NCBI GenBank assembly: GCA_033763455.1
Contig: JANRKO010000028.1
Location: forward strand, 64,001-128,000
Direction of reading: 5' to 3'
DNA from: Polyangiaceae bacterium
Lineage (GTDB): Bacteria; Myxococcota_A; Polyangia; Polyangiales; Polyangiaceae
DNA: 64,000 nucleotides
The notes beneath the pieces were generated by a model. It was not told the DNA's origin. It did not search any database and saw only the letters and a list, made by a program, of their open reading frames with translations. Of this stretch, positions 4,409-29,355 are shown piece after piece. Both the position numbers and the translations under genes were made by a program. Position 1 is the first letter of the stretch. Each line of letters opens with the position of its first letter.

Positions 4409-6193
4409 TTAAGGTTTGCATTTTCCTTTGCCCTTGCTGCTAACACACTCGCCTTTGCATGCCGAAAGGCCCGCGTTGCATTGGATACCGCATTGGCTAT
4501 TGCTACATGTAGCTTTGCCTCCAACTACCCCTGGGCAGGCCTTACCGCATTGTCCGCAGTTGGCAACGTCGCTCTTCACGTCCACACACTGTTGTCCGCA
4601 GCGAACCAATGCTTGCTTGCACTGGAATGAACAAACCCCGCTATTACAGCTAGGTGCGGCGTTGCTCGGGGCACCGCAGATCTTGCCGCAGGAGCCGCAG
4701 TTAGAGGTATCGGATGCAAGCTCGACGCAAGCTCCGCTGCACTCAGTTTTCGAGCCACAGGCCATACCGCACACCCCGGACTCGCATACTTGACCCATGG
4801 CACATGCCGTTGAGCAGCCGCCACAGTGCGCAGGATCCGCGTTTGTATTGACGCACTGGCCGCCGCAAAGGCTGAAGCCGGCGTTACAAGTGATACCGCA
4901 GACACCAGCCGCGCACGTCGCCTGGCCATTGGCGGCAGCCGGACAGGAATTGCCGCAAACGCCGCAATTTTTGGCATCCACGTCGCTGCGAACACATTGG
5001 CCGCTGCACGAGGTATAGCCCGCATCGCAAGCAATCCCACACATCCCATTAGCGCAGCTGGGCACGCCATGGGCCGCACCGGGACACATCACGTCGCAAC
5101 TGCCGCAGTGAGCCGGGTCGCTCGCTAGATCAGAACAAGATCCATTGCAGTTTTCGGCGGTGCCTGAGCAACTCACCGTGCAGTTTCCAGCATTGCAGAC
5201 CTCCCCCGACGCACATGCATGTCCACAGGCGCCACAGTTTGAAGGATCACGGGCTGTTTGTACGCACTCCCCGCTGCACTCCGCGTAACCCGCAGAACAG
5301 ACAATCGCACACACACCTTTTTCACAACGGCTTTGACCATTGGCTGGGGCGTTGCACGCCGCGTCGCAGGCGCCACAATTGGCAGCGTCCGTGAGGGTAT
5401 CCACACAGGTGTTACCGCATTTGGTCCACCCGGCGTTGCAGCTGAAGTCGCAGTTCGAATTCGTGCACAAGGGTGTGCCTTGCGCCGGCGTTGGGCAACG
5501 CATGCCGCACGTGCCGCAGTGATTCACGCTTGAGGCCACGTCCACACAGGCCCCTGAACAAGCCGAAAGGCCTCCCGCGCAGCTCTCTGCACAGACGCCG
5601 TTCGAGCACACCTCACCGGGAATGCACGCCGTGTTGCAGCTTCCGCAGCGACCGGGATCGGTGCTTACGTCAGTGCAATCGCCAGCACACGCTTGGAAGG
5701 GCGCGCGACATAACGCCTGGCACTTCCCGTCCACGCAGCTCGCGGTTCCCCCGGCTTGCTCGGGGCAGACGGCGCCGCAGGCTCCGCAATTTTGCGGATC
5801 GTGATTAGTGTCCACGCACTGGGATCCGCAGGCAACGTAGGGCTTAAGGCAGGCAAAATTGCAATCATTGTTGAGGCAAATGGGCGCCGCGTTTGCAGGG
5901 GCGCTACAAGTTGCGCCGCAACCACCACAGCTTTTGGCATCGCTTGCAAGCAAGCGGCATTCGTTTCCGCAGAGAGTCATCCCCTCTTGGCACCCGATGG
6001 GGAGCTCAGATAACGGTGCTCCAGGGGTAGCGCGGATGCAGCGGTTGGTCACCGTGTTGCAGACGTAGCCGTCCACACAACGTTGGGCGGCATCGCAGGC
6101 CCTACCTTCCAAGCTTTCTGACATGCCGGAATCGCAAGCCCCTGCGAAGTACGCAAACAGGATCCACACAAGGCGAAACACCCTTGGTGGCAC
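4409..6193 (-). CDS. Cys-rich repeat surface lipoprotein (STIG1/MXAN_6577-like repeats)
   Basis: Lipobox-like FAGAC; 11 copies of CVDxxxDxxNCGxCGxxC. Confidence 0.85.
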   Translation of the reverse strand: MPPRVFRLVWILFAYFAGACDSGMSESLEGRACDAAQRCVDGYVCNTVTNRCIRATPGAPLSELPIGCQEGMTLCGNECRLLASDAKSCGGCGATCSAPANAAPICLNNDCNFACLKPYVACGSQCVDTNHDPQNCGACGAVCPEQAGGTASCVDGKCQALCRAPFQACAGDCTDVSTDPGRCGSCNTACIPGEVCSNGVCAESCAGGLSACSGACVDVASSVNHCGTCGMRCPTPAQGTPLCTNSNCDFSCNAGWTKCGNTCVDTLTDAANCGACDAACNAPANGQSRCEKGVCAIVCSAGYAECSGECVQTARDPSNCGACGHACASGEVCNAGNCTVSCSGTAENCNGSCSDLASDPAHCGSCDVMCPGAAHGVPSCANGMCGIACDAGYTSCSGQCVRSDVDAKNCGVCGNSCPAAANGQATCAAGVCGITCNAGFSLCGGQCVNTNADPAHCGGCSTACAMGQVCESGVCGMACGSKTECSGACVELASDTSNCGSCGKICGAPSNAAPSCNSGVCSFQCKQALVRCGQQCVDVKSDVANCGQCGKACPGVVGGKATCSNSQCGIQCNAGLSACKGECVSSKGKGKCKP

Positions 6194-7230
6194 TAGAAGT
6201 TCCCCTTGGCGACCATGCTGCAGCCGTGCGCGCCGCAGCCGAATCCGACACGCGTTATTGGATCTGGGCTGGTGTTGAACACGAACAATACACCCCCGGT
6301 AATTACCAAGGCGCCGCCGATGCCACCCAAGATGCGCGCCGCCTGCTTGTCCGCTGCCATTCTGTCAAGGTGCGTTTTGAACTCCACTTGCGATGCAGCG
6401 CTCCTTGCCTTGGACTCTTCGGAGCGCCTTGCGAGCTCGAAACCAAGCGAAGCCCCAAGACTCGCGGCACCCACTCCGGTTGGGATCCAAGGCAGATCGC
6501 CAAAGCGACGCGCTGGCCTATCTTCGGGAGTTGTACCCAGGCGCTTCAGAACGGGTTGTGAGGTTTGGGTGGGCTGGCTGGTGTACAAGCTCACGGCCTT
6601 TTCGGGGCGAGGCTGTAACGTGAGTACGTAGGAGGCGTCCTTCGGTTCGAACTTGCTCAGTAGCACTTCGGAATTCTCATCGTGGTAGCCATCTAAGTGG
6701 AGGTGAAGCTGGTGCTTGCCTGGGCTGAGCTCAAGGGTGATGGGGGTAGTCCCAACATTTTGACGATCGATGAGCACGGTGGCGCCTGTTGGCGTCGACA
6801 GCACGCTGAGCTGTTGAAGCCCCTGGGTCGCCAGAACCCGAGCCATGGCAGTAATTCGGTTCAGCACAACTGGGGCGTTGGGGGCGCTTGGATTGCGGCG
6901 CAAGTAGTCGCGGAACCACCGTAAAGCAGCTCGCTCATCGCCCAGGTTTTCGTAGGCGAGGGCGATGTTGAATGAGAGTGCGGCACTTGGAGCGAGCGCA
7001 TCGGCCTGTAGGAAAAGCTGAACGGCGTCTACAAAGCGACGTTCACGAAACGCTTCCGATCCCATTTGGTACTTGGCCTTCGCTGAGTCGCGCCGGGCCT
7101 CCGAGATGCTTTCGGCGCTAGGGATCTGAGCTCGTGCATTTGCGGGTATACCGCATATGCAGCAACATGCCCCGAGCCAAAGCGCGGCGAAATAGCGCGA
7201 GACAATTTGGTTTTGGTGGCGCGGATCCAT
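6193..7230 (-). CDS. TPR + PEGA domain exported protein
   Basis: Signal peptide, TPR-like helices (FNIALAYENLG), PEGA motif STPTGATVLID...GTTP...PGKH...GY, C-terminal hydrophobic segments. Confidence 0.88.
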   Translation of the reverse strand: MDPRHQNQIVSRYFAALWLGACCCICGIPANARAQIPSAESISEARRDSAKAKYQMGSEAFRERRFVDAVQLFLQADALAPSAALSFNIALAYENLGDERAALRWFRDYLRRNPSAPNAPVVLNRITAMARVLATQGLQQLSVLSTPTGATVLIDRQNVGTTPITLELSPGKHQLHLHLDGYHDENSEVLLSKFEPKDASYVLTLQPRPEKAVSLYTSQPTQTSQPVLKRLGTTPEDRPARRFGDLPWIPTGVGAASLGASLGFELARRSEESKARSAASQVEFKTHLDRMAADKQAARILGGIGGALVITGGVLFVFNTSPDPITRVGFGCGAHGCSMVAKGNF

Positions 7231-7237
7231 TGCACTC

Positions 7238-8728
7238 TCAGTACGGTTGCATCAACTCGACTGCCGTGGCGCGACTTGGGGTCGGGGTCGGACTCTCGTC
7301 GACGTCGGGTAAGCGCTGCCGCGCGCCGGCATGCTCAGTTTTGGCGGAGCGATCTGCCTGTGCGGATGCTGCGGGTACTGGTTCCACCAATGTTTTTATA
7401 GTGGAAACGGGTGTCGGCGATGCCAACGGCGACGTCGGCAATGGCAAACGCGCGGGGAGCTGCGACTCAATACGGGGCACCGCTTCGTTTGTGCGCACCG
7501 CAGCTGTCCATTTTCGATCAGTTGATGCCCAAACGGCCGCCAGCCCCAACGCAGTTGCTAGCGCTGTCAGCAGCCACGGCAGACGACGCCCCCTGGAGCT
7601 TGCCGTGTTGTTCCTCGGCAAACCGCTTTCCGAAGTTGGAGCAATCACAGCTTGCGACGGGAGAGTGGCCGGCCTCGATACACTGGCGACGAGTGCAGAA
7701 CGTGGGAGCCCAGGAGAAGCCCTGAACCCTTCCGCTTGCACATTCCACTTTGCCTCCAACGAGGCTCCGCAAGCGTCTTCAAGCACACCATGGTGCATGA
7801 GCCACGCAGCCAGCGTTGAACCCAGCTCTTCCATGGATTTAGGCCTGAGATCGGGGTCTTTTCGTAGGCCCCACTGGATGATTTGCGACAGCGAATCGTC
7901 GACGCCCGCCTCGGCGGCGAAGGGCGCAGGCTCGTGTTCAATGATGGAGTAAAGCACGGCAACGTTGCTTCCACCTCCGAACGGAGGCCGTTGGGTGATG
8001 AGCTCATACAAGACAACGCAAAAAGACCAGATGTCGGAGCGGTGATCAATGTTAGCAGTGCCTTGCGCCTGCTCCGGAGACATATAGTCAGGGCTTCCGA
8101 TTAGTGTGCCATCTTGGGTTACTTGCCGAGAGCTTGTGGAGTGGTGGCCACTGAGTTTTGCGATGCCAAAATCCAGCAATTTCGGCTGTAAACTGGCGTT
8201 GCTAGTCGAGAGAAAAACGTTGTCAGGCTTTAGATCTCTGTGAACGATGCCCTTATCGTGCGCTAGCACCAAGGCTTCGGCGATGGGAAGCATCAGCTGA
8301 ACCGCGCGCACGGAGGAGATGGGTCCGCGGGCTGCTAAGTGCGATAGCGGCTCACCATCTAGCAATTCCATGACCACAAATGGCTCGCCTTGCTCGGTTT
8401 CCCCCGCGTCGAACACGCGAACGATGTTCGGATGCACAAGTTGTGCGGAAACCCGAGCCTCGATCTTCAAGCGCTCCCTAAGCTCTGCGCTTGCTTCCCC
8501 CGCTCTCAACAGCTTGAGGGCCACGTGCGAGCCCAACTGGAGGTTGAGTGCACTCCAAACCGAAGCCATGCCGCCTTCGCCTACCAACGTTTCAAGCTGA
8601 TACTTTCCAGCCACAACCATGCCACTCCGGCGTATGCCGGGCGCTCGCGCGGGGGACTGGAGAGGGTCAGAGGTTGGCATTCGGAAGGACAAGCCTTCGA
8701 CTGCGCTGAGCAAGGCCGGGGCACCCAT
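7238..8728 (-). CDS. Membrane-anchored Hanks-type Ser/Thr protein kinase
   Basis: GEGGMASV, VALK, HRDLKPDN, DFG, YMSPEQ; TM helix then Pro-rich tail. Confidence 0.95.
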   Translation of the reverse strand: MGAPALLSAVEGLSFRMPTSDPLQSPARAPGIRRSGMVVAGKYQLETLVGEGGMASVWSALNLQLGSHVALKLLRAGEASAELRERLKIEARVSAQLVHPNIVRVFDAGETEQGEPFVVMELLDGEPLSHLAARGPISSVRAVQLMLPIAEALVLAHDKGIVHRDLKPDNVFLSTSNASLQPKLLDFGIAKLSGHHSTSSRQVTQDGTLIGSPDYMSPEQAQGTANIDHRSDIWSFCVVLYELITQRPPFGGGSNVAVLYSIIEHEPAPFAAEAGVDDSLSQIIQWGLRKDPDLRPKSMEELGSTLAAWLMHHGVLEDACGASLEAKWNVQAEGFRASPGLPRSALVASVSRPATLPSQAVIAPTSESGLPRNNTASSRGRRLPWLLTALATALGLAAVWASTDRKWTAAVRTNEAVPRIESQLPARLPLPTSPLASPTPVSTIKTLVEPVPAASAQADRSAKTEHAGARQRLPDVDESPTPTPSRATAVELMQPY

Positions 8729-9229: not shown

Positions 9230-9598
9230 ATGAGTGATTACCACGAGCCTTGGGAAAAGCTTTCGAGTGAATGCCGAGACCTCCACCGCGCTTTGGTGAG
9301 TTTGAAGGAGGAGATTGAGGCGGTGGATTGGTATGAGCAGCGTGCGTGTTTAGCCGCAGATCAAAGTCTTGCGCGCATTCTGCGCCATAATCGAGACGAG
9401 GAAATCGAACACGCCTGCATGACACTCGAATGGCTGCGCAGGACTGTGCCGGCGTGGGATGCGCAGCTCAAACGCTATCTCTTTACCGCTTCCGAGATTG
9501 TCAAAGAAGAGCCCAAAGCCGAGACATCTCCATTCAAAGGGTTAGCAGACGACGTGCGACCGCCTGCAGAAGCCCCGCACCTTCAGGTGCGCGGCTGA
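9230..9598 (+). CDS. Encapsulin-associated ferritin-like protein (EncFtn family)
   Basis: HEP...HRALVSLKEEIEAVDWYEQR...ILRHNRDEEIEHACMTLEWLRR...YLFT closely matches the Rhodospirillum rubrum EncFtn ferroxidase core. Confidence 0.9.
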   Translation: MSDYHEPWEKLSSECRDLHRALVSLKEEIEAVDWYEQRACLAADQSLARILRHNRDEEIEHACMTLEWLRRTVPAWDAQLKRYLFTASEIVKEEPKAETSPFKGLADDVRPPAEAPHLQVRG

Positions 9599-11439: not shown

Positions 11440-11820
11440 TCAAGGTGTATGCAAGCGAACCAGCTTGAGCTTAGCCAACCGACGAAAGTCCGCATCCAGC
11501 GACCAGACGTGCCCCCCTCTCTCGGTCGCGATTGCGCCAATCAAGAGGTCCCCTAAGCCGAAGTGTTGACCCGCGGCGACAGCCTTCTGCACCCAGGCGT
11601 CGAGGAGTGTCCAGGTGTCTCGGGTGGGGTAGAAAACGGGTAGAGCCGAGAGCGTGCGCCGCAAGGTCGGTTGCTCTCTGACGGACGCGCCCGCGAGGAT
11701 TTCGAGGCGAACTGGCGCCGCCAGGGCGACTTCCGCGCTGTCCAGAAGAAGAGAGAGCGCAGACACTGACGCCCGCCCCCGGAATGCATCGACCCACACC
11801 GAGGTATCTACAAAGATCAT
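11440..11820 (-). CDS. vapC: PIN-domain toxin
   Basis: MIFVDTSVWVD, LEILAG, DLLIGAIA, SLDADF acidic PIN residues. Confidence 0.9.
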   Translation of the reverse strand: MIFVDTSVWVDAFRGRASVSALSLLLDSAEVALAAPVRLEILAGASVREQPTLRRTLSALPVFYPTRDTWTLLDAWVQKAVAAGQHFGLGDLLIGAIATERGGHVWSLDADFRRLAKLKLVRLHTP

Positions 11821-12038
11821 CGGCCGAGGACGCGCCTATTGGAGGTTGGGCGGCGCCGTGAACCTGCGATGTCGACACTGAGCTCCACCTGGCCCATCAG
11901 GCTCTTCAGTTCTTCAATCCGCCGCTGGCGAATGAGCTCGCGCAGAGAAAAGATCACTACATCTGTCTTCGAGGTGAACTCCAAGAGCGCTTGGGCCTCG
12001 TTCATCAGCTCTACGGGGATATCCAAGGTGGTACGCAT
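11817..12038 (-). CDS. vapB: VapB antitoxin
   Basis: MRTTLDIP..LM.EA......SKT.V...L.ELI RHH-type pattern; overlaps the vapC start. Confidence 0.85.
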   Translation of the reverse strand: MRTTLDIPVELMNEAQALLEFTSKTDVVIFSLRELIRQRRIEELKSLMGQVELSVDIAGSRRRPTSNRRVLGR

Positions 12039-12407
12039 ACAATTAAGAGTGGATCGTATGCGTACAGATGTCAAATAGGTTGAAGTAGAAGCACCTGCGC
12101 GATCCCAGGAGGTGGAACGGTTGACACTCGACTTTTCTCGGAATGGCAGGGGCGGGTGACGCGTTCTCCGAACCGAGAGGGGCTAGTGCTCGTCCCTGCA
12201 TGCAACGAGTCTGCTGCAATCTACTTGAGGTCGACGCATGGCGACGCAGGTGATGGCGGAGCACATATGTTTTGTAATGAATGCAACACAGGAGGATGAA
12301 AATCATGAAGGTAAATAATCAAGTTCTTAACGGGGCGTGGGCATGCATTGGTACCCCGGGCATATTGGGGTCTCCATCTTCACAAGCAGATCGCTGAAGG
12401 GGGTGTC

Positions 12408-20911: not shown

Positions 20912-21585
20912 CCTCAATCGCGAGTGATGCGGCAGCGTCTGCGCCGCCCGGGCAGAGTTTTTGGCGCGTCTATTGGCTCGCATTTGTGCGCCCCGCGCGA
21001 GCCATGAATGCCTTAGTCCAATCCCGCGGTGCAGTACGATTCGGCGCCTGCAGTGTGGCCATCACGGGTGTCACGTATTCACTCGTTTACTTCTTCCTGT
21101 CGCAGAACGGAGGCAGGCCCACCGTCTTCGAGCCTTGGCTCGCTATTCCCGCCGAGGATTACTACCGCTACAATTTGCTATTCAACCTCCCGAGCGTGCT
21201 CCTGGCCTGGGTCGCAGCGACAGGCTTCACTCACCTGGCCGCTCAGGCCTTGGGCGGAAAAGGGACGTTCGAGACGACCTTGGGCACACTCGGCTTGGGC
21301 ATCGGAGTGGCCTCCTGGGGCACCGGACTTCACGATCTGCTCACGAGCTGCATGGGGTACCAGGGGCTGCTCGACCAACGCGCCTACGAAGATGCCATGA
21401 GCGCGCCCGGGACGGCGGCCCATCGCCTGATTTGGACGCTCATGCTGCTCTATTCGAGCGCGTTCCTGCTGCTCTTCACGCGAGGCGTCGGGGTCGCGCA
21501 TGGCCTCCGCCTCGGTCGCGCCTTCGCTTGTGGAGCGCTTGGCTTCGCCGTGTACCAGGGCATATTCGTGCTCTTCAACCGCTGA
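20908..21585 (+). CDS. YIP1-like multi-pass membrane protein
   Basis: About five TM segments, RP..A...L and LGGKGTFE motifs; ATGA overlap with the upstream gene. Confidence 0.7.
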   Translation: MTSIASDAAASAPPGQSFWRVYWLAFVRPARAMNALVQSRGAVRFGACSVAITGVTYSLVYFFLSQNGGRPTVFEPWLAIPAEDYYRYNLLFNLPSVLLAWVAATGFTHLAAQALGGKGTFETTLGTLGLGIGVASWGTGLHDLLTSCMGYQGLLDQRAYEDAMSAPGTAAHRLIWTLMLLYSSAFLLLFTRGVGVAHGLRLGRAFACGALGFAVYQGIFVLFNR

Positions 21586-21843
21586 CAATCGAACGCGCGC
21601 ATCCGCACGCTGCCTCGCTTCTACACCACCGATGTGACGTTTCTCAGCTGACCGCCGCGCCGATCCAGCACACGCCACGTATTCCGATTTTTCGGATTTG
21701 GTGGCGCATCAAATGCGCGAGACGTGAACCCGTCGCGCAAGTCGTTCGTGCCGAGCGGCGACAGGTTGGCGGCGAGATCTGCAGAAACCGTTTTTCGAAT
21801 AGCCGCTTGCCTCGCCGGGCAGAGCGCTGCTAAGCGTCTTCCT

Positions 21844-22296
21844 ATGAAGTCGATAACCCAAACGACGCGACGCGCCTTGGCGGTGTTGCTACTGTTGCCA
21901 CTAAGCGGCTGCTATAGGGCGACGTTTTTCGAGAACCCTACTGCTGTTCGCGGCAATGAACACGAGCGCTGGACAGATTTCTTTATCTTCGGTTTGGTTG
22001 GCACCCAAGATTTCTCCATCAAGGAGTTTTGCCCGAGCGGCGAGGTGGCGCAGGTTCGCACCGGGGCGAACTTTGGAACTGGCATCGTTGGGTTTTTGAC
22101 GATTGGGATCTACACGCCACGAAAACTCTATGTAACGTGTGCCGCAACGGGCAAGGCGGCGCGGCGTGAACTGGAGATTGACGCTACTTCCTCAGGTGAG
22201 CCTGTAGCGGCAAAGATTCGCACTGGGAATTTAGCCGTACCGGTTAACATTCAACGGGTCAAGTCGGCTACGTGGCGACTTCAGGAGCGGAGCTGA
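21844..22296 (+). CDS. Bor/Iss-like lipoprotein
   Basis: Lipobox LSGC; FFIFGLVG...CP...GIYTPR...C pattern. Confidence 0.8.
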   Translation: MKSITQTTRRALAVLLLLPLSGCYRATFFENPTAVRGNEHERWTDFFIFGLVGTQDFSIKEFCPSGEVAQVRTGANFGTGIVGFLTIGIYTPRKLYVTCAATGKAARRELEIDATSSGEPVAAKIRTGNLAVPVNIQRVKSATWRLQERS

Positions 22297-22299
22297 GCC

Positions 22300-22734
22300 A
22301 TGTACAAGAATCGCAACTCCCGAACGCTGCTTGGCCTGTTTCTCACGTGCCTCCCCCTCTGCCTAAGTGGGTGTTACACGACCACCATTCACTCTGGGAA
22401 ACCTGCCGCGGCGCCGAGCCTCGAATACGATCAGAAGTGGCATCACGGCCTGGTGTGGGGGATCGCCGAACTCAGCGGCCCTTACGATCTGTCAAAAATC
22501 TGTCCACTCGGGTGGGCGAAAATTAAGACCGAAACCTCATTTCTGAATGGTTTCGTCGAGGCTGTGACCAGTGGTGTCTATGCGCCCCAGACGATCACCG
22601 TCATGTGCAACGCCTCTGAGGGTCCCGCCGCGCCATCCACTTCTGCTAAGCCCGCTGCGCCTCCCACCGATACGCCTGTTCCCCCTTCAACGGAGCCCGC
22701 TGCCCCGGTCGAGCCAAGCGCTAGCCCCGAGTGA
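22300..22734 (+). CDS. Bor/Iss-like lipoprotein with Pro/Ala tail
   Basis: Lipobox LSGC; WGI...ICP...TETSFLNG.....T.GVYAP.T..V.C pattern. Confidence 0.8.
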   Translation: MYKNRNSRTLLGLFLTCLPLCLSGCYTTTIHSGKPAAAPSLEYDQKWHHGLVWGIAELSGPYDLSKICPLGWAKIKTETSFLNGFVEAVTSGVYAPQTITVMCNASEGPAAPSTSAKPAAPPTDTPVPPSTEPAAPVEPSASPE

Positions 22735-22867
22735 AGATCCTGGATTTATGATCGTATTCCTAGCGAGCGCGATCCTGATGCGGAGCCGGCGACCTGATCG
22801 GTTTGCCAGGTGCAGTTGCCGTTGAGCCTAAGCCAGTATCCCAGACTTGCGTGCAACCGGTTTCGGT

Positions 22868-22948
22868 TCGGCGTTTGCAGGGAAACGCCACCAGGTCCGC
22901 GTGGTCGCAGGAACGGCAGGTAAGCTGCAAATATCCATGCTCCGGGAT
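22868..22948 (-). mobile_element. IS91/ISCR-family transposase zinc-binding domain relic
   Basis: IPEHGYLQLTCRSCDHADLVAFPCKRR resembles the conserved GILEHGF.R.RC..C....LVAFSCKRRG motif; rest of the transposase is absent. Confidence 0.7.
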
Positions 22949-23172
22949 AGCGCTAATCATGCCCCGCCCGGCCGCTTGAAGCGGGGGCGATTTAAGGAAA
23001 GTCACCAACCTGTCGCAAAGCTCATGGCTAGCGAGGCGCTTCGCATGCCAAGTACCGCCCGGATGGTCGAAACCCCCTTGGATGGTGCGGGATTTTGTGG
23101 TTATGCTGCGCCGCTCCCTATGGGAGTAGCTCATTGACTGCAAGCGGACGTTCGGAGAACGAAGGAGAGATC

Positions 23173-24087
23173 ATGGCAAACTTTGGAACTCTGATTAAGA
23201 CAACGCGCGGGCGCCGCGTGGCTGCTGGCATTGCGGGCGCCGCAACACTTGCGAGCGCGGGTGCCTACGCCGCGGTTAGCCTCAACGCGAGCAGCGGTGA
23301 GATCCAAGGCTGCTACGACCGACAGGGCCGGCTGCGCGTACTCACGGGCCCGAACGATGCCTGTGAACGCAATGAGCAAGCTATCAGCTGGAACAAGCAA
23401 GGCCCCGAGGGAGCCCAGGGCCTTCCTGGGATACAGGGGCCCGCAGGTCCGGTGGGACCGGCGGGAGCGGATGGAGCACCTGGTCGGGATGGACGCGATG
23501 GCCTTCAGGGCGCCATCGGCCCAATGGGGGCAATCGGGCCTGTTGGTCCTCAGGGGCCTGCAGGGCCTCCGGGTTCAAGTGGTGGAGGAGGCGGTCAGCC
23601 AGCCCCGGCGGCCCACGAGGCCGATGTGTTCTTGAAGATCGGTGACATTAAGGGCGAATCGACGGACACCAAGCACAAGGACGAAATCGAGATCGAAAGC
23701 TTCAGCTGGGGCCTTAACAACGCGGGTTCGTTAAGCTCCGGCGGGGGAGCGGGCTCTGGCAAAGTGAGCTTTAATGATATCCAGCTTACCAAGCGCGTCG
23801 ATCTCTCAAGTGCCGCTTTGGCTCTCAACGGCGCGACAGGCAAGCATCTGCCTGAGGCCACCATCACGATCCTAAGGCCTAGCCAGAAGACGGGCGAAAA
23901 GGTCGAATATCTGAAGATCAAGCTGACGGACGTCTTGGTGACTTCCGTGAGTCAGGCGATCGATACGAGCGCCACCGCCGCCGAGAGCATCTCGCTCAAT
24001 TTCTCCAAGATCGACTTCCAATACACGTCGGAAGTAGCACCGCCCAATGGGTTCGGGTGGGACATCAAACAGAACACGAAGCTTTGA
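23173..24087 (+). CDS. hcp: Signal peptide + Cys-paired domain + collagen (Gly-X-Y) repeats + Hcp tube domain fusion
   Basis: SD AAGGAGA; basic/hydrophobic leader ending AYA; 19 GXY triplets; Hcp motifs [58 protein letters not shown]. Confidence 0.9.
23401..23571 (+). repeat. Collagen-like Gly-X-Y coding repeat (19 triplets)
   Basis: [57 protein letters not shown]. Confidence 0.9.
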
Positions 24088-25658
24088 GCCAGAGTGGGGC
24101 TGATTTCAAGGCGGCATTGACCGCCTACGATCAAGTTGCCTACCCAGGCCACGCCTACCCACAGACGCACCCCACACGCCTGGGCGCGATGGCTCAGCTA
24201 CTCGGGTTAACGCCAGCGCCCGTTGAGCGTTGCCGAGTTTTGGAGCTCGCCTGTGGGGACGGCGCCAATCTTATCCCCATGGCCGTGGCGCTGCCGGGCG
24301 CTACCTTCGTCGGCGTGGACGTCGCAGCGCGTGCGATCGCCGCGGGGCAAGAGATTGTGGCCGAGCTCGGCCTCCGGAACATCGAGCTTCGCGCGGGCGA
24401 CGCTTCCGCCCTGGGGCGCGATTTAGGGGAGTTCGACTATGTGATCGCCCACGGGGTCTATTCGTGGGTGCCAGAAGCCGTGCGCGACGGGCTGCTCGCA
24501 ACGATCAAGGCACACCTGGCGCCGGGTGGGATCGGTTATGTGAGCTTCTCCGCGTATCCTGGCGCCTATTTTCGCGAACTCGTGCGCGAGCTCATGCTCT
24601 TTCACACGGGCGAGGGCGCGCCACCCACCGAGCGCCTTCAGCACGGAATCGATTTCTTGCGCTTTGTTCGCGAAGTGCACGGTCCCGGAACGGCTTACGC
24701 GGCCGCCCTGGATCAAGAGCTTGTGCGCGTTTCCAAAGCGGACCCAGGCTACGTCTTTCACGATGATTTCTCTGAAACGAATGCCCCGATCTATTTTTCG
24801 GCTTTTGCTGAACACTTGGCCACACACGATCTTGCCTACCTGTGTGACGCGACCTTCGATTACTTCTTCGACCCACGCCTTTCGTCGGCTGTACGCGAGC
24901 AGATCAGCAGCTACGCCGGGGGAAACATCATTGCCGAACAGCAGTACCTCGACTTCATCCAGGGCACACCCTTCCGCCAAACGCTGGCGTGCCACGCGAG
25001 CGCACCGATTGATAGAAAGTTCGACGCGACGCGATTGTTCCCGCTCTTGGCTTCGGCTTGGCTTGCTCCTACACAGCCGGACCCCGACATCCTGGGCCCA
25101 ACCCGTGTTTGCTTTCGCAGCCAAGATCTTCGAGAAATCGAAACGGAGGAGCCGCTCGCCAAAGCTTTGCTCTTGGAGCTATCCCAAGCTTGGCCTGAAG
25201 CGCGTAGCGTTCAGTGCATTTTTGACAGCGCCCTCAGGCGCATCGGGGCGCCTCCACCCGATCCATCGGGGGCGCCTGGGTACGCTCCGCACGCGCTCCG
25301 GGTTCTGGAGCGCACCGTTCTTATGGGCGCCGCTACCCGCTTGATCTCTGTGTGGCACGGCAGCTTTGTGGGTATCGGAGTACCCGGCGATCGCCCGCTC
25401 GCAAGTCCGCTCGCTCGCCTTCAAGCGAGTCGTGGAGAACTAGTAACGAGCCTTCGCCACACGACAGTACGCCTTCAAGATGCCCCTGCACGTGGCCTGC
25501 TTGAGCTGATGGATGGCACCCGCACCCGCCAGGACTTGTTGGTAGCGCTCCGCGACCGATTGGCCGAGTCCGACCCAACCTCTGCCCATGACCTAAACCT
25601 GGAAGCGCTCAACCGCGTGCTCAACGGGTTGGCGGAGCGTGGTTTCGTTTTGGGTTAG
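24084..25658 (+). CDS. Class I SAM methyltransferase with methyltransferase regulatory domain (rickettsial PKMT-like architecture)
   Basis: [47 protein letters not shown]...[13 protein letters not shown]....FRQTL, LL.LMDGTRT; TTG start overlaps the hcp stop (TTGA), alternative GTG at 24057. Confidence 0.88.
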
Positions 25659-25709
25659 GCGATCTCCAGCTGAGGCCCCTGGCTCGCAGCACCGCAGACT
25701 ACATCGCGC

Positions 25710-26546
25710 TCAAAGTGGCGCGGCCGTATAGCCTTGCACCACCTTTAGGTTGTCGAAGCGAATGGCAGATGGCGTCTGCGGTTCCCACGTGAGGTTCGGA
25801 AAAATGGCGGGTAAATACTGCGATGCACAAAGATCGTCGAACAACCCCTGGGTCAGCCCTGGGTACGCTGGCAGTGCACCTTGACACGTCGTCCGCTTCA
25901 CTTCGTTGCCACCGTAGAAGGTGCTGAAAAATAGGCTGTTGACCCATGCATCTTGGCTGTCCGGAACAATCACCGGGCACGGGCCGCTGCACTCGTCGCG
26001 CAACACCACGTTGTGAGAAACCAACAGTCGTTTGGCAGAGCCGTCGGCGGCTTGCACCGCCAAACTTACTTCACCATTGCCCGAGATGGGCACCGGGGCG
26101 CCGATACCATCCAGAACCAGCTTGCCGTCCGCATCTTTCTTGTAAACGACACTGTCATTGTCGTTTACCTGAACCGAGATTCGTAGCGTGTACCATTTGC
26201 CTGTTTGGAAACGAAATTTGTCGTCGGCAGGGATCTTGCCCGGCTCTTCGTAGGGCGCGTCTCCGTCGGTGGCATCCATCATCTGCATCACGCCGCAGCC
26301 CCCCGAAGGACGCGTTTGATCGTAGGAATACAGTTGTAAGCGGCCATTGTTGCGCCACATCACGCGCACACTCCAGTTCTTCACATTGCGCTTCTTGTTT
26401 CCATCGTCCGTGCACCCACTGTCGAAAGCCTTGGCCGCCAAACCCGGTAATTTCCCACCCTTGGCGAAATCGAAACCGGGCTCGAAATACAAATCGTAGG
26501 TCAACGTGTACGCCTTCGCAGCGATAGGGGCGTTAGAGGCAGCCAC
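25710..26546 (-). CDS. Polysaccharide lyase family 14-like protein, probably 5'-truncated
   Basis: Y.LYFEPGFDFAKGGKLPGL, WSVRVMWR, FSTFYGG motifs; no signal peptide, in-frame stop shortly upstream. Confidence 0.7.
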   Translation of the reverse strand: MAASNAPIAAKAYTLTYDLYFEPGFDFAKGGKLPGLAAKAFDSGCTDDGNKKRNVKNWSVRVMWRNNGRLQLYSYDQTRPSGGCGVMQMMDATDGDAPYEEPGKIPADDKFRFQTGKWYTLRISVQVNDNDSVVYKKDADGKLVLDGIGAPVPISGNGEVSLAVQAADGSAKRLLVSHNVVLRDECSGPCPVIVPDSQDAWVNSLFFSTFYGGNEVKRTTCQGALPAYPGLTQGLFDDLCASQYLPAIFPNLTWEPQTPSAIRFDNLKVVQGYTAAPL

Positions 26547-27570: not shown

Positions 27571-28716
27571 GTGCTCCGCTCACTCGAACTCAGCAACTTT
27601 CGAGCCTTCCAGAGTTTCTCTCTTGAAGGCCTTGGACAAATAAATTTGTGCGTCGGCACTAATAACTGCGGCAAGACCTCGATCCTCGAAGCCGTAAGCA
27701 TCTTGGCGTCGCGCGGTCGTCCGGAATCGCTTTGGTCCGCGCTTGCCCGTCGCGGTGAGCAGTGGTTCGAAGATGATACTAGGGGTCCGGGCCGCCTAGA
27801 AGTCGATATTTGCCATCTGTTCTATGGTCATGAGCTTTTACCAAATGCGCAGTTCTCAATTACAGGAGTAAACGACACGAGGACGCAGAAAATCACCGCC
27901 ACGGCCGTTGAGCGCGACCCCGCTCAGGAGAACACTGAAGGCCCTGATCGCATATCAGCTCGTCAGGGTACCCTGTTTGATCCAGGCGACACTGAAAATT
28001 CGCTCGGGGGGAGGATGTCGTTGGAGCTACGATGGGAGGGTTTCAACAGCGAGGTAACTCAGCAGTTTCTCGTATCGCGACGCGGAGGCCTGGTTAGCGA
28101 CGTTCTCGAACGATCGACCAGAAAGCGCGACGACGACGCCACTCCGGTTAGATCGATTACGACCGAAGCACTGACACGCGACGAAGTCGTCGCCATGTTC
28201 GAAGCCATTGTGCTAACCCCGGAGGAACAAGTCGTCATTGATGCGCTCAAGACGATCGAACCTGCTATCGAACGCATTGCTCCGATTGGCTCTTCGCGAC
28301 GCCGATATTTCCCCGTTGATCGGGGTGGAATTGTCGTAAAGTTAGCGAACAGCAACCAGCGCATCCCCATAGGCAGCATGGGAGACGGGATCTGGCGGAT
28401 GCTTGGAATCGCTTTGTCGCTAGCGCGAGCCAGGGGCGGGATCCTCCTCGTCGACGAGATTGACACGGGATTTCACCACTCGGTCATGGCCTCCATGTGG
28501 CGGATGGTTCTTGAAACCGCCTTAAGGCTCGACGTCCAGGTATTTGCGACCACCCACAGCCGCGACTGCTACGAAAGCCTTGCTTCCATTTCACGCGCGG
28601 ATGCATCGGAGAGTCGTGTGTCTATCCAGCGGATCGAGCGCGGAAACCCCAAGGCCGTAGCCTTCTCCGAAAGTCAGATAGTCATCGCTGCAGAACGCGC
28701 CATTGAGGTGAGATAA
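27571..28716 (+). CDS. AAA/ABC-family ATPase (AAA_15/AAA_21-like)
   Basis: NFRAF, Walker A GTNNCGKTS, signature SMGDG, Walker B LLVDEIDTGFH, QVFATTHS. Confidence 0.9.
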   Translation: MLRSLELSNFRAFQSFSLEGLGQINLCVGTNNCGKTSILEAVSILASRGRPESLWSALARRGEQWFEDDTRGPGRLEVDICHLFYGHELLPNAQFSITGVNDTRTQKITATAVERDPAQENTEGPDRISARQGTLFDPGDTENSLGGRMSLELRWEGFNSEVTQQFLVSRRGGLVSDVLERSTRKRDDDATPVRSITTEALTRDEVVAMFEAIVLTPEEQVVIDALKTIEPAIERIAPIGSSRRRYFPVDRGGIVVKLANSNQRIPIGSMGDGIWRMLGIALSLARARGGILLVDEIDTGFHHSVMASMWRMVLETALRLDVQVFATTHSRDCYESLASISRADASESRVSIQRIERGNPKAVAFSESQIVIAAERAIEVR

Positions 28717-28719
28717 CCT

Positions 28720-29355
28720 ATGCGCGTCATGTTGGTTGAGGGATCAGATGACCTGCGTGCAATCCCCCACCTCTTGGAGACAGCCGGCGTGGCGTGGGGC
28801 CGAAAAGATAAGCCAATTGTCAAAATTATCCAATGCGAAGGGGTGGCAACAATGTTGGCACCTGACTTCATCACGACACATCTAAAGGCATCAGGTCTGG
28901 TGGCCCTGGGGGTTATCGTGGATGCGGACAATAGCGCGCAAGACCGTTGGAGAACGATCCGCGAACGAGTGCTCGACCTCTACTCCGATGCTCCATCTGA
29001 CATGCCCGCCACGGGAGTAATTCTGCGCGCGACGGGCAAACCCACGTTTGGCGCATGGATAATGCCAGACAATGTGAACCGCGGGATGCTTGAGACGTTC
29101 CTGCTTTTTCTCAGGCCCAAGGACAATCCGTCGCTGCTTGCGTACGCACAGGAGGTTATCCAAGAGGCCAAGAACCGGGGCGCACCGTTCCTGGAACAGC
29201 ACCAGGACAAGGCCGAGATTCACTCTTGGCTGGCTTGGCAGGATCCCCCTGGGAGGCAGTTGCACAACGCCATCATGGAGAGAATGTTGGGGAACAAACA
29301 CGAGTGTATTGAATCATTTGTTGCATGGTTTCAGGCGCTTTACTCCCAAAAATAG
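28720..29355 (+). CDS. DUF3226-like TOPRIM-fold protein
   Basis: LVEGSDD and IVDADN TOPRIM motifs, WIMPDN...GMLE, KA..H.WLAWQDPPG; 3 nt after the ATPase stop. Confidence 0.82.
   Translation: MRVMLVEGSDDLRAIPHLLETAGVAWGRKDKPIVKIIQCEGVATMLAPDFITTHLKASGLVALGVIVDADNSAQDRWRTIRERVLDLYSDAPSDMPATGVILRATGKPTFGAWIMPDNVNRGMLETFLLFLRPKDNPSLLAYAQEVIQEAKNRGAPFLEQHQDKAEIHSWLAWQDPPGRQLHNAIMERMLGNKHECIESFVAWFQALYSQK

Follow-up and report, generated by a model that had tools for sequence, protein, structure and literature searches.

The question raised by this locus is whether a protein with a complete Hcp domain, a feature read as a sign of type VI secretion, must belong to a type VI secretion system (T6SS) at all. 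The gene under study (hcp) lies on the plus strand (23173..24087) of a 64,000-nucleotide stretch of contig JANRKO010000028.1 from a Polyangiaceae bacterium, referred to as the window, and encodes the window protein (P0001). It is moderately probable that this product is a Sec- or Tat-exported, T6SS-independent Hcp ring on collagen stalks, possibly lysine-methylated, that serves as an extracytoplasmic structural or adhesive scaffold. Judged from its sequence, the gene is a chimera of an export-and-stalk cassette and a complete Hcp1-type beta-barrel, the latter occupying the position of a globular head.

Protein architecture, leader and stalk

The open reading frame (ORF) comprises 304 codons and a stop, as read by translation, and an alternative longer reading from a TTG at 23095 is without a comparable ribosome-binding site. 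The parts of the protein (Table 1) agree with the preliminary description of this DNA, which had listed a leader, a cysteine pair (IQGCYD...C...ISWN), 19 Gly-X-Y triplets, a glycine linker and an intact Hcp domain, all of which are present. Counted strictly, residues 77-142 hold 22 triplets, the 19 ordinary ones (77-133) being followed by GSS, GGG and GGQ. The Pfam profiles T6SS_HCP and Collagen, proposed there as a check, both score above their cut-offs: T6SS_HCP (PF05638) covers residues 153-284 with its whole profile (1-129 of 129, E 1.6e-37), and Collagen passes narrowly (27.7 bits against 27.2). NCBIfam TIGR03344 (TssD) gives 66.2 bits against a cut-off of 58.9, and the Hcp domain matches the sequence of P. 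aeruginosa Hcp1 (1y12) at E 3.5e-32. The profile E-values and the unbroken run of at least 19 Gly-X-Y triplets lie far outside chance. The Hcp domain closes the window protein, the extension being N-terminal and holding no toxin family (Pfam), and no LPXTG, outer-membrane or spore attachment signal was seen in the protein by sequence, Pfam or NCBIfam.

An AlphaFold2 single-chain model, built on 36 relatives, shows residues 1-38 as disordered, with the leader at a predicted local distance difference test (pLDDT) score below 50, followed by a three-stranded mini-domain at residues 41-76 (pLDDT 87-94; strands 43-48, 54-56 and 69-74). The Hcp domain exceeds a pLDDT of 90, the hinge is weak, and the collagen has the low confidence expected for a single chain. 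Compared with 1y12 by Foldseek, the modelled Hcp domain reaches a template modelling (TM) score of 0.86, with a root-mean-square deviation of 2.3 A and 39% identity.

The leader of the window protein combines an n-region of net charge +4, containing RGRR, with 27 uncharged residues (best 12-residue Kyte-Doolittle mean 1.82) and a candidate cleavage site between AYA and A. A basic n-region (net +1 to +6), 18-35 uncharged residues and small-x-small sites before the first cysteine occur in 36/36 aligned members, these calls coming from our own heuristic and not from a trained signal-peptide predictor. A twin arginine is found in 20 of the 36, including the whole Polyangia subgroup. The leader could be a Sec signal peptide, a Tat signal peptide or a signal anchor. 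The last option defines the best of the rival explanations, an unlikely one in our judgement, in which the same exported protein keeps an uncleaved anchor and the stalk of ~16 nm holds the Hcp ring out as a spacer or docking ring, within the periplasm or, for monoderms and archaea, within the wall zone. The uncharged stretch is long enough to span a membrane, the strongly basic n-region favours an N-in orientation, Nitrososphaera forms have a still more membrane-like segment, and the window protein shows no further anchor or sorting signal. The small-x-small sites nevertheless stand at the right distance in all 36 members, the leaders on cassette relatives with different heads are of the usual short, cleavable kind, and the Ala/Gly-rich, weakly hydrophobic composition is more like that of a Tat or Sec signal.

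The 36-sequence alignment shows no variation at C47, R55, C64, E68 or the glycine of the first triplets, and the W73-N74 pair of the cysteine module includes an N74 conserved in at least 90% of the sequences. The invariant cysteine pair would fit an oxidising compartment. A further cysteine between collagen and Hcp (for example ...GLSC-DG) occurs in 31 of 95 proteins with leader, collagen and Hcp, where it could form an interchain knot; the window protein is without it. The motif GRDGRDG recurs in the collagen of many family members.

The same N-terminal parts also carry other heads. A cassette profile made from 10 N-terminal modules (cysteine module plus five triplets) scored 7,999 proteins, 432 of them reaching E <= 0.01, and among the 120 matches listed, 21 have Hcp and 99 do not. 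Heads among these 99 include tail-collar PF07484 (n=10), lamin-tail PF00932 (n=6), Big_5 PF13205 (n=2), PF07603 (n=1) and PF18998 (n=1), the rest being collagen only, with unassigned C-terminal parts. A clear leader is present in 7/8 of the non-Hcp cassette proteins inspected, the eighth being truncated. The order of the cassette, a leader, the motif I-x-[AG]-C...R...C...E...WN and then directly Gly-X-Y, is also that of the window protein; C, G, R, C, E and N are invariant in the 10-module alignment, and the I-x-[AG]-C...WN motif occurs in 86 of the 95 proteins with leader, collagen and Hcp. A search with the single sequence of residues 1-80 returned only the three closest relatives and the query, and a hidden Markov model (HMM) of the N-terminal module picked out only Hcp-bearing carriers in the first 262 proteins fetched, as expected from how that set was fetched. 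Leads from the Atlas search agree with a shared cassette, but all are below 0.9, its reliability line. Taken together, the alignments indicate that the leader, the cysteine module and the collagen belong together as a widespread export cassette, with Hcp as one of several heads, and the simplest history would be domain shuffling that placed an Hcp barrel on an exported collagen stalk.

Type VI secretion genes and the methyltransferase neighbour

T6SS families (VgrG, PAAR, sheath, baseplate, ClpV, TssJLM) were found neither among the 50 window ORFs of at least 90 aa nor among 39 small intergenic ORFs, and tblastn with 19 T6SS core proteins from relatives' loci gave no match in the window at E <= 1e-6. 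The earlier statement that the 64 kb hold no T6SS genes is thereby confirmed, for 23 kb upstream and 40 kb downstream of hcp. Taken alone this is weak evidence, because Polyangia relatives have T6SS clusters. A neighbourhood survey was read per locus, covering the 80 loci of the nearest hcp genes, found with 13 closer sequences. T6SS core families number at least three in the flanks of 54 loci, one or two in 3, and none in 23, several of these 23 being short contigs with incomplete flanks; Pfam checks of 16/80 loci were concordant with this census. The four other leader-bearing loci all fall among the 23: L001, L040 (Pacearchaeota), L053 (Peribacteria) and L055. A survey of the architecture against T6SS presence per genome had been suggested at the outset; read per locus, 4/4 of these leader-bearing loci show no T6SS genes in flanks that are partly incomplete. 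L001 holds the closest full-length relative in species-representative genomes (a Polyangiaceae metagenome-assembled genome (MAG), 63% identity over residues 1-301).

The gene overlapping the end of hcp, which the preliminary description had not mentioned, encodes a product with Pfam Methyltransf_25, MethyTransf_Reg and PKMT_2nd, which matches Rickettsia PKMT2 (PDB 5doo, E 1.9e-59 over residues 18-501) and PKMT1 (PDB 5dnk, E 1.8e-56); on these alignments it is a full-length homologue of the PKMT-type protein-lysine methyltransferases, with their class I SAM domain joined to the regulatory and C-terminal winged-helix domains. NCBIfam gives no above-cut-off name for any of the methyltransferases, and PADLOC returns only a generic methyltransferase-domain match ('mad2') for the methyltransferase neighbours and none for the Hcp proteins. 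A promoter scan found no plus-strand site upstream of hcp, no terminator was found between hcp and the methyltransferase gene, and an Rfam scan of 21500-26500 gave no match. At L001 the methyltransferase gene begins 3 nt after hcp and is 73% identical over the first 209 residues, its ORF being shorter (280 aa). Only the hcp-methyltransferase pair is conserved between the window and the L001 neighbourhood; the surrounding genes differ.

Across the survey, a methyltransferase lies within 2 kb of hcp in 18/23 T6SS-free loci (within 120 bp in 13 of these 18) and in the flank of 22/57 loci with T6SS genes, the counts being descriptive and not an independent test, as the methyltransferase seeds were taken from the same 80 loci. 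The types at T6SS-free loci are PKMT-like, TPR-methyltransferase and MTS/DUF7059 HemK-like, and full-length PKMT homologues stand 1.5-2.7 kb from hcp in Planctomycetota T6SS clusters. Three of the five leader-bearing loci (window, L001, L055) show the pairing. Of the 157 residues in the Hcp domain of the window protein, 14 are Lys and 2 are Arg. In a separate observation, leaderless hcp and a methyltransferase form a two-gene module whose flanks are without T6SS genes, beside a TPR-methyltransferase (L004, L020, L025, L026, L028, L029, L049, L057, L058, L068, L071) or MTS/DUF7059 (L003, L042, L062), with labels from Acidobacteriota, Actinomycetota, Chloroflexota, Methylomirabilota, Desulfuromonadales and Proteobacteria.

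According to two published sources, enzymes of this type methylate many lysines of exported surface proteins (PMC8232902, PMC11784438), the substrates being the exported surface protein OmpB (PMC8232902) and the trimeric fibre AtaA (PMC11784438). The latter also states that many PKMT carriers are without such fibres and must have other substrates (PMC11784438); neither 'Hcp' nor 'type VI' turned up in a term search of that paper. One preprint makes passing mention of a methyltransferase close to a T6SS copy (10.1101/2024.05.07.592589). No report of Hcp methylation was found in the full-text literature, subscription-only literature being outside scope. The pairing of hcp with a methyltransferase is a testable lead, namely that Hcp may be a PKMT-type substrate beyond the only known ones, OmpB and AtaA.

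If the protein is an exported scaffold, its pre-protein would cross the cytoplasmic membrane via Sec or Tat and not via a T6SS, its cysteine pair would oxidise outside the cytoplasm, and its Gly-X-Y segments would wind into triple helices ~16 nm long. The Hcp heads would close into a six-membered ring, giving a particle of six chains in which one ring bears two collagen stalks. The methyltransferase, presumed to be co-transcribed, would methylate lysines of the window protein, as its relatives do on OmpB and AtaA, and the product would work outside the cytoplasm as a structural or adhesive scaffold and not as a projectile tube. Export by a general route and independence from T6SS, both put forward in the preliminary description, gain comparative backing from the leaders in 36/36 members, the invariant cysteine pair, the non-Hcp carriers of the cassette, the lineages concerned and selection on the leader.

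Several points weigh against this explanation. The long (27) and weakly hydrophobic uncharged stretch makes cleavage uncertain, the default destination after Sec or Tat export in diderms is the periplasm and not the surface, and the window protein has no recognisable outer-membrane or cell-wall anchor. A weak GAGG precedes, by 5 nt, an in-frame GTG at V152 (23626). PKMT-like genes also lie inside T6SS clusters (L008-L010, L031), L040 and L053 (2/5 leader-bearing loci) have no methyltransferase beside hcp, and lysine content was dropped as a mark of methyltransferase-linked Hcps (10.5% vs 9.9%). In Polyangia, leaderless Hcps are encoded within full T6SS clusters (L050, L054), the organism of the window may own a T6SS elsewhere in its genome, and identity between the Hcp domain and T6SS-linked Hcps amounts to 38-51%, leaving room for a tie of the window protein to a distant T6SS. 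The taxon labels of MAGs can also be wrong.

That tie is the substance of a second, improbable rival, in which the window protein is a specialised ('evolved') Hcp fired by a T6SS encoded elsewhere, with the N-terminal extension as cargo or targeting part. In its favour, the complete Hcp domain closely resembles T6SS Hcp1, hcp genes are often orphans (23/80 loci without T6SS neighbours), Polyangia do have the clusters just named, and PKMT-like and TPR-methyltransferase genes occur inside T6SS clusters (22/57 loci). Set against this, the extension is N-terminal and equals an export cassette common to non-Hcp proteins, a cytoplasmic tube subunit would have no use for the conserved leader and cysteine pair, records of the same architecture carry the labels of lineages not known to have T6SS, and a 150-residue N-terminal collagen on every subunit would be hard to fit in the sheath.

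The start codon bears on a third rival, less probable again, in which internal initiation at the GTG of V152 yields a leaderless canonical Hcp for a T6SS, beside or in place of the long form. The GTG is in frame, with its GAGG at the canonical Hcp start point, and canonical relatives begin MAVDMFLK, but a stronger AGGAG stands at the first ATG, and V152 is not a conserved start in relatives. The comparison was made codon by codon and segment by segment with L001. Identical residues number 28/33 in the leader (20 of these 28 in different codons), 33/43 in the cysteine module, 33/57 in the collagen, 5/13 in the hinge, the least conserved part, and 94/153 in the Hcp domain. On this count the leader is the best-conserved segment relative to L001 and is under strong purifying selection, which argues against translation from the Hcp domain alone. 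Purifying selection acts on the 150 upstream codons, whose conservation exceeds that of the Hcp part, and the reading frame and motifs are kept in 95 fetched proteins. The preliminary description had held that translation starting at an internal codon just before the Hcp domain would refute export; the evidence is contrary to such a start being the only one, and a minor second product could arise from the GTG.

A phage or tailocin part, namely a tail-tube-like domain on a collagen fibre left by a prophage, was rejected: Hcp and phage tail tubes are homologous, a phage tail-collar head is found on some relatives of the cassette and a sub-threshold IS91-like zinc-binding remnant lies just upstream, but no phage gene was found in the window ORFs, tblastn against 50,697 phage records reached 5 records, in the Hcp domain only and at 26-42% identity, and viral tube folds are remote (TM by target <= 0.59, 9-17% identity) next to Hcp1 (0.86, 39%).

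Family spread, proposed ring composition and genomic setting

A word-indexed protein search gave 1,009 matches at E <= 0.001 among 8,000 scored, and an exhaustive search gave 36,465 at E <= 0.001, of which 122 reached E <= 1e-30. From both searches 262 proteins were fetched, 232 of them with an Hcp domain by our own HMM, in a sample biased towards the query. The form of the window protein, leader, collagen and one Hcp domain, accounts for 95/232; a leader with one Hcp domain accounts for 45/232, leader and collagen with two Hcp domains for 6/232, and exactly six tandem Hcp domains for 28/232. Proteins with three, four or five Hcp domains are mostly fragments, beginning or ending inside a domain, and the six proteins with leader, cysteine module, collagen and two Hcp domains all end 0-10 residues past the second domain. 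Records with leader, collagen and Hcp are labelled Polyangiaceae/Polyangia, Solirubrobacteraceae (Actinomycetota; P0029, P0040) and Pacearchaeota (P0079/L040), and the leader-plus-Hcp form is labelled Nitrososphaera viennensis (P0054, on a 2.5-Mb contig). Actinobacteria and archaea are not known to have T6SS. Such hcp genes are auto-annotated as 'T6SS tube protein'.

The counts of two or six domains point to a six-domain ring as the working unit and lend indirect support to the 6 = 2 x 3 arrangement put forward in the preliminary description. Six single-Hcp chains would give one ring and two triple helices (6 = 2 x 3), three two-Hcp chains on one triple helix would likewise supply six Hcp domains, and one six-Hcp chain would give the ring alone; the six-Hcp proteins could be single-chain Hcp rings. 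In the window protein, a glycine hinge of 16 residues could give the six N-termini enough freedom to group as two trimers. Among the 28 six-Hcp proteins (e.g. P0121-P0129, P0138, P0149, P0198), linkers are regular, at ~15-25 aa, and many have an N-terminal leader of the 'LE.R.LLA' type; four (P0148, P0169, P0180, P0191) are without a leader and carry a C-terminal extension of ~560 aa.

Trees of the 150-residue Hcp domain are poorly resolved and unrooted, with poorly supported deep branches. Leader-bearing forms appear as several uniform groups interleaved with T6SS-linked groups, and the orphan set of Hcp with TPR-methyltransferase is a supported group (99). An approximately unbiased (AU) test on 72 domains rejected one common origin for all leader-bearing Hcps (p 0.002, cost 120 log-likelihood units), the leader-bearing group having been defined after an earlier tree had been seen; the rejection implies that leaders were gained or lost more than once.

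A wider reading, tentative at best, sees in these proteins a large undescribed family of Sec- or Tat-exported, lysine-methylated Hcp ring scaffolds in bacteria and archaea, with a conserved methyltransferase partnership that reaches into true T6SS clusters and would make Hcp a third class of PKMT substrate. Its rings would consist of six single chains, of three two-Hcp chains on one collagen helix, or of one six-Hcp chain, and the relation of the T6SS tube to exported rings, including their order of origin, would be open to question. The parts are known, and the combination and the family appear undescribed: no description of a leader-bearing, collagen-fused or tandem Hcp was found in the full-text literature, again with subscription-only literature outside scope. 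If a substantial set of Hcp proteins is exported by the general route in T6SS-free organisms, counting Hcp gives too high an estimate of T6SS in genomes and metagenomes, the Hcp ring would be a general extracytoplasmic building block, and natural six-domain single-chain and collagen-stalked rings could serve protein engineering.

The remainder of the window is myxobacterial in look, with Ser/Thr kinases and PEGA and Stig1-repeat proteins. The ORF closest upstream of hcp, in the opposite orientation, could be what remains of an insertion sequence next to the hcp-PKMT pair. Table 1 lists the parts of hcp together with the other genes recognised.

Table 1. Coordinates of the hcp gene parts, the methyltransferase gene and other features of the window
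Feature	Coordinates	Strand	Basis or remark
Shine-Dalgarno-like AGGAG	23163..23167	+	5 nt before ATG, read from sequence
Leader, residues 1-33	23173..23271	+	Basic n-region, 27 uncharged Ala/Gly-rich residues; own heuristic
Cysteine module, residues 34-76	23272..23400	+	Alignment of 36 sequences and model strands
Collagen-like stalk, residues 77-133	23401..23571	+	19 uninterrupted Gly-X-Y triplets
Gly-rich hinge, residues 134-149 (16 residues)	23572..23619	+	Low pLDDT at 131-142
Complete Hcp1-type domain, residues 150-304, and stop codon	23620..24087	+	Pfam, 1y12, Foldseek
PKMT-type methyltransferase gene, without leader	24057..25658	+	31 nt overlap with hcp; Pfam and PDB matches
Operon-like run: Stig1-repeat cysteine-rich protein, PEGA-domain protein, Ser/Thr kinase	4409-8728	-	Typical of myxobacteria
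Encapsulated-ferritin-like gene	9230-9598	+	EncFtn-like, E 2e-38; no adjoining encapsulin shell gene recognised
VapB antitoxin match overlapping 135-aa ORF	11817-12074, 11471-11878	-	33.7 bits; possibly VapBC pair
Bor-family lipoprotein genes, tandem pair directly upstream, same strand as hcp	21724-22296, 22300-22734	+	
IS91 transposase zinc-binding domain, sub-threshold	22760-23143	-	20.4 bits vs cut-off 26.3; in 438-nt gap upstream of hcp
PDC-M38A (AbiLi-like ATPase)	27571-28716	+	PADLOC candidate defence pair, full-length, 283 bits
PDC-M38B (DUF3226)	28720-29355	+	PADLOC candidate defence pair, full-length, 222 bits

Comparison with known systems

Like canonical Hcp1/TssD (P. aeruginosa PA0085), the window protein has the complete Hcp beta-barrel with its long Gly-rich loop. 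Canonical Hcp is leaderless, spans ~160-175 aa and is encoded with sheath and baseplate genes (L050, L054, L002, L014, L018), whereas the window protein has 304 aa, a 149-residue N-terminal extension of leader, cysteine module and collagen, and no T6SS neighbour. Known evolved Hcps carry C-terminal toxin extensions; unlike these C-terminal effectors, the extension of the window protein is N-terminal.

The collagen-like surface proteins Scl1/Scl2, Lcl and BclA combine a leader, an uninterrupted Gly-X-Y stalk and a globular domain, as does the window protein with its putative export leader. NCBIfam matches to Lcl and SclB cover the Gly-X-Y part only and fall far below their cut-offs (33 bits against 500 and 32 against 325, respectively), and the window protein differs from Scl, Lcl and BclA in having no LPXTG or other anchor and in its C-terminal head, which is an Hcp barrel. 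Hcp barrels form hexamers, not trimers. Closer in part order are the unnamed 'Cys-clamp + collagen' proteins (P0263, P0264, P0268, P0285, P0296), whose arrangement is the same as that of the window protein; their heads are tail-collar, lamin-tail, Big_5 or unassigned domains, with Hcp in the minority (21 of the 120 matches listed).

For the methyltransferase, the nearest counterparts are Rickettsia PKMT1/PKMT2 and Acinetobacter KmtA, the neighbour gene aligning over its full length with PKMT2. The substrates of these enzymes are exported fibre or surface proteins; the pairing proposed here differs in that no Hcp substrate has been reported for PKMT1/2 or KmtA.

The engineered chimeras GspE-Hcp1 (4ksr/4kss), Vps4-Hcp1 (6ap1) and TrwK-Hcp1 (7o42) place the partner N-terminal to Hcp1, likewise as in the window protein, the Hcp1 ring presumably being used as a hexamerising platform. 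They are laboratory constructs, cytoplasmic, with a hexameric ATPase as partner, unlike the trimer-forming collagen found here. The chimeras show that cargo on the N-terminal side is compatible with Hcp1 crystallising within hexameric assemblies, and the window protein may be the natural counterpart of these constructs.

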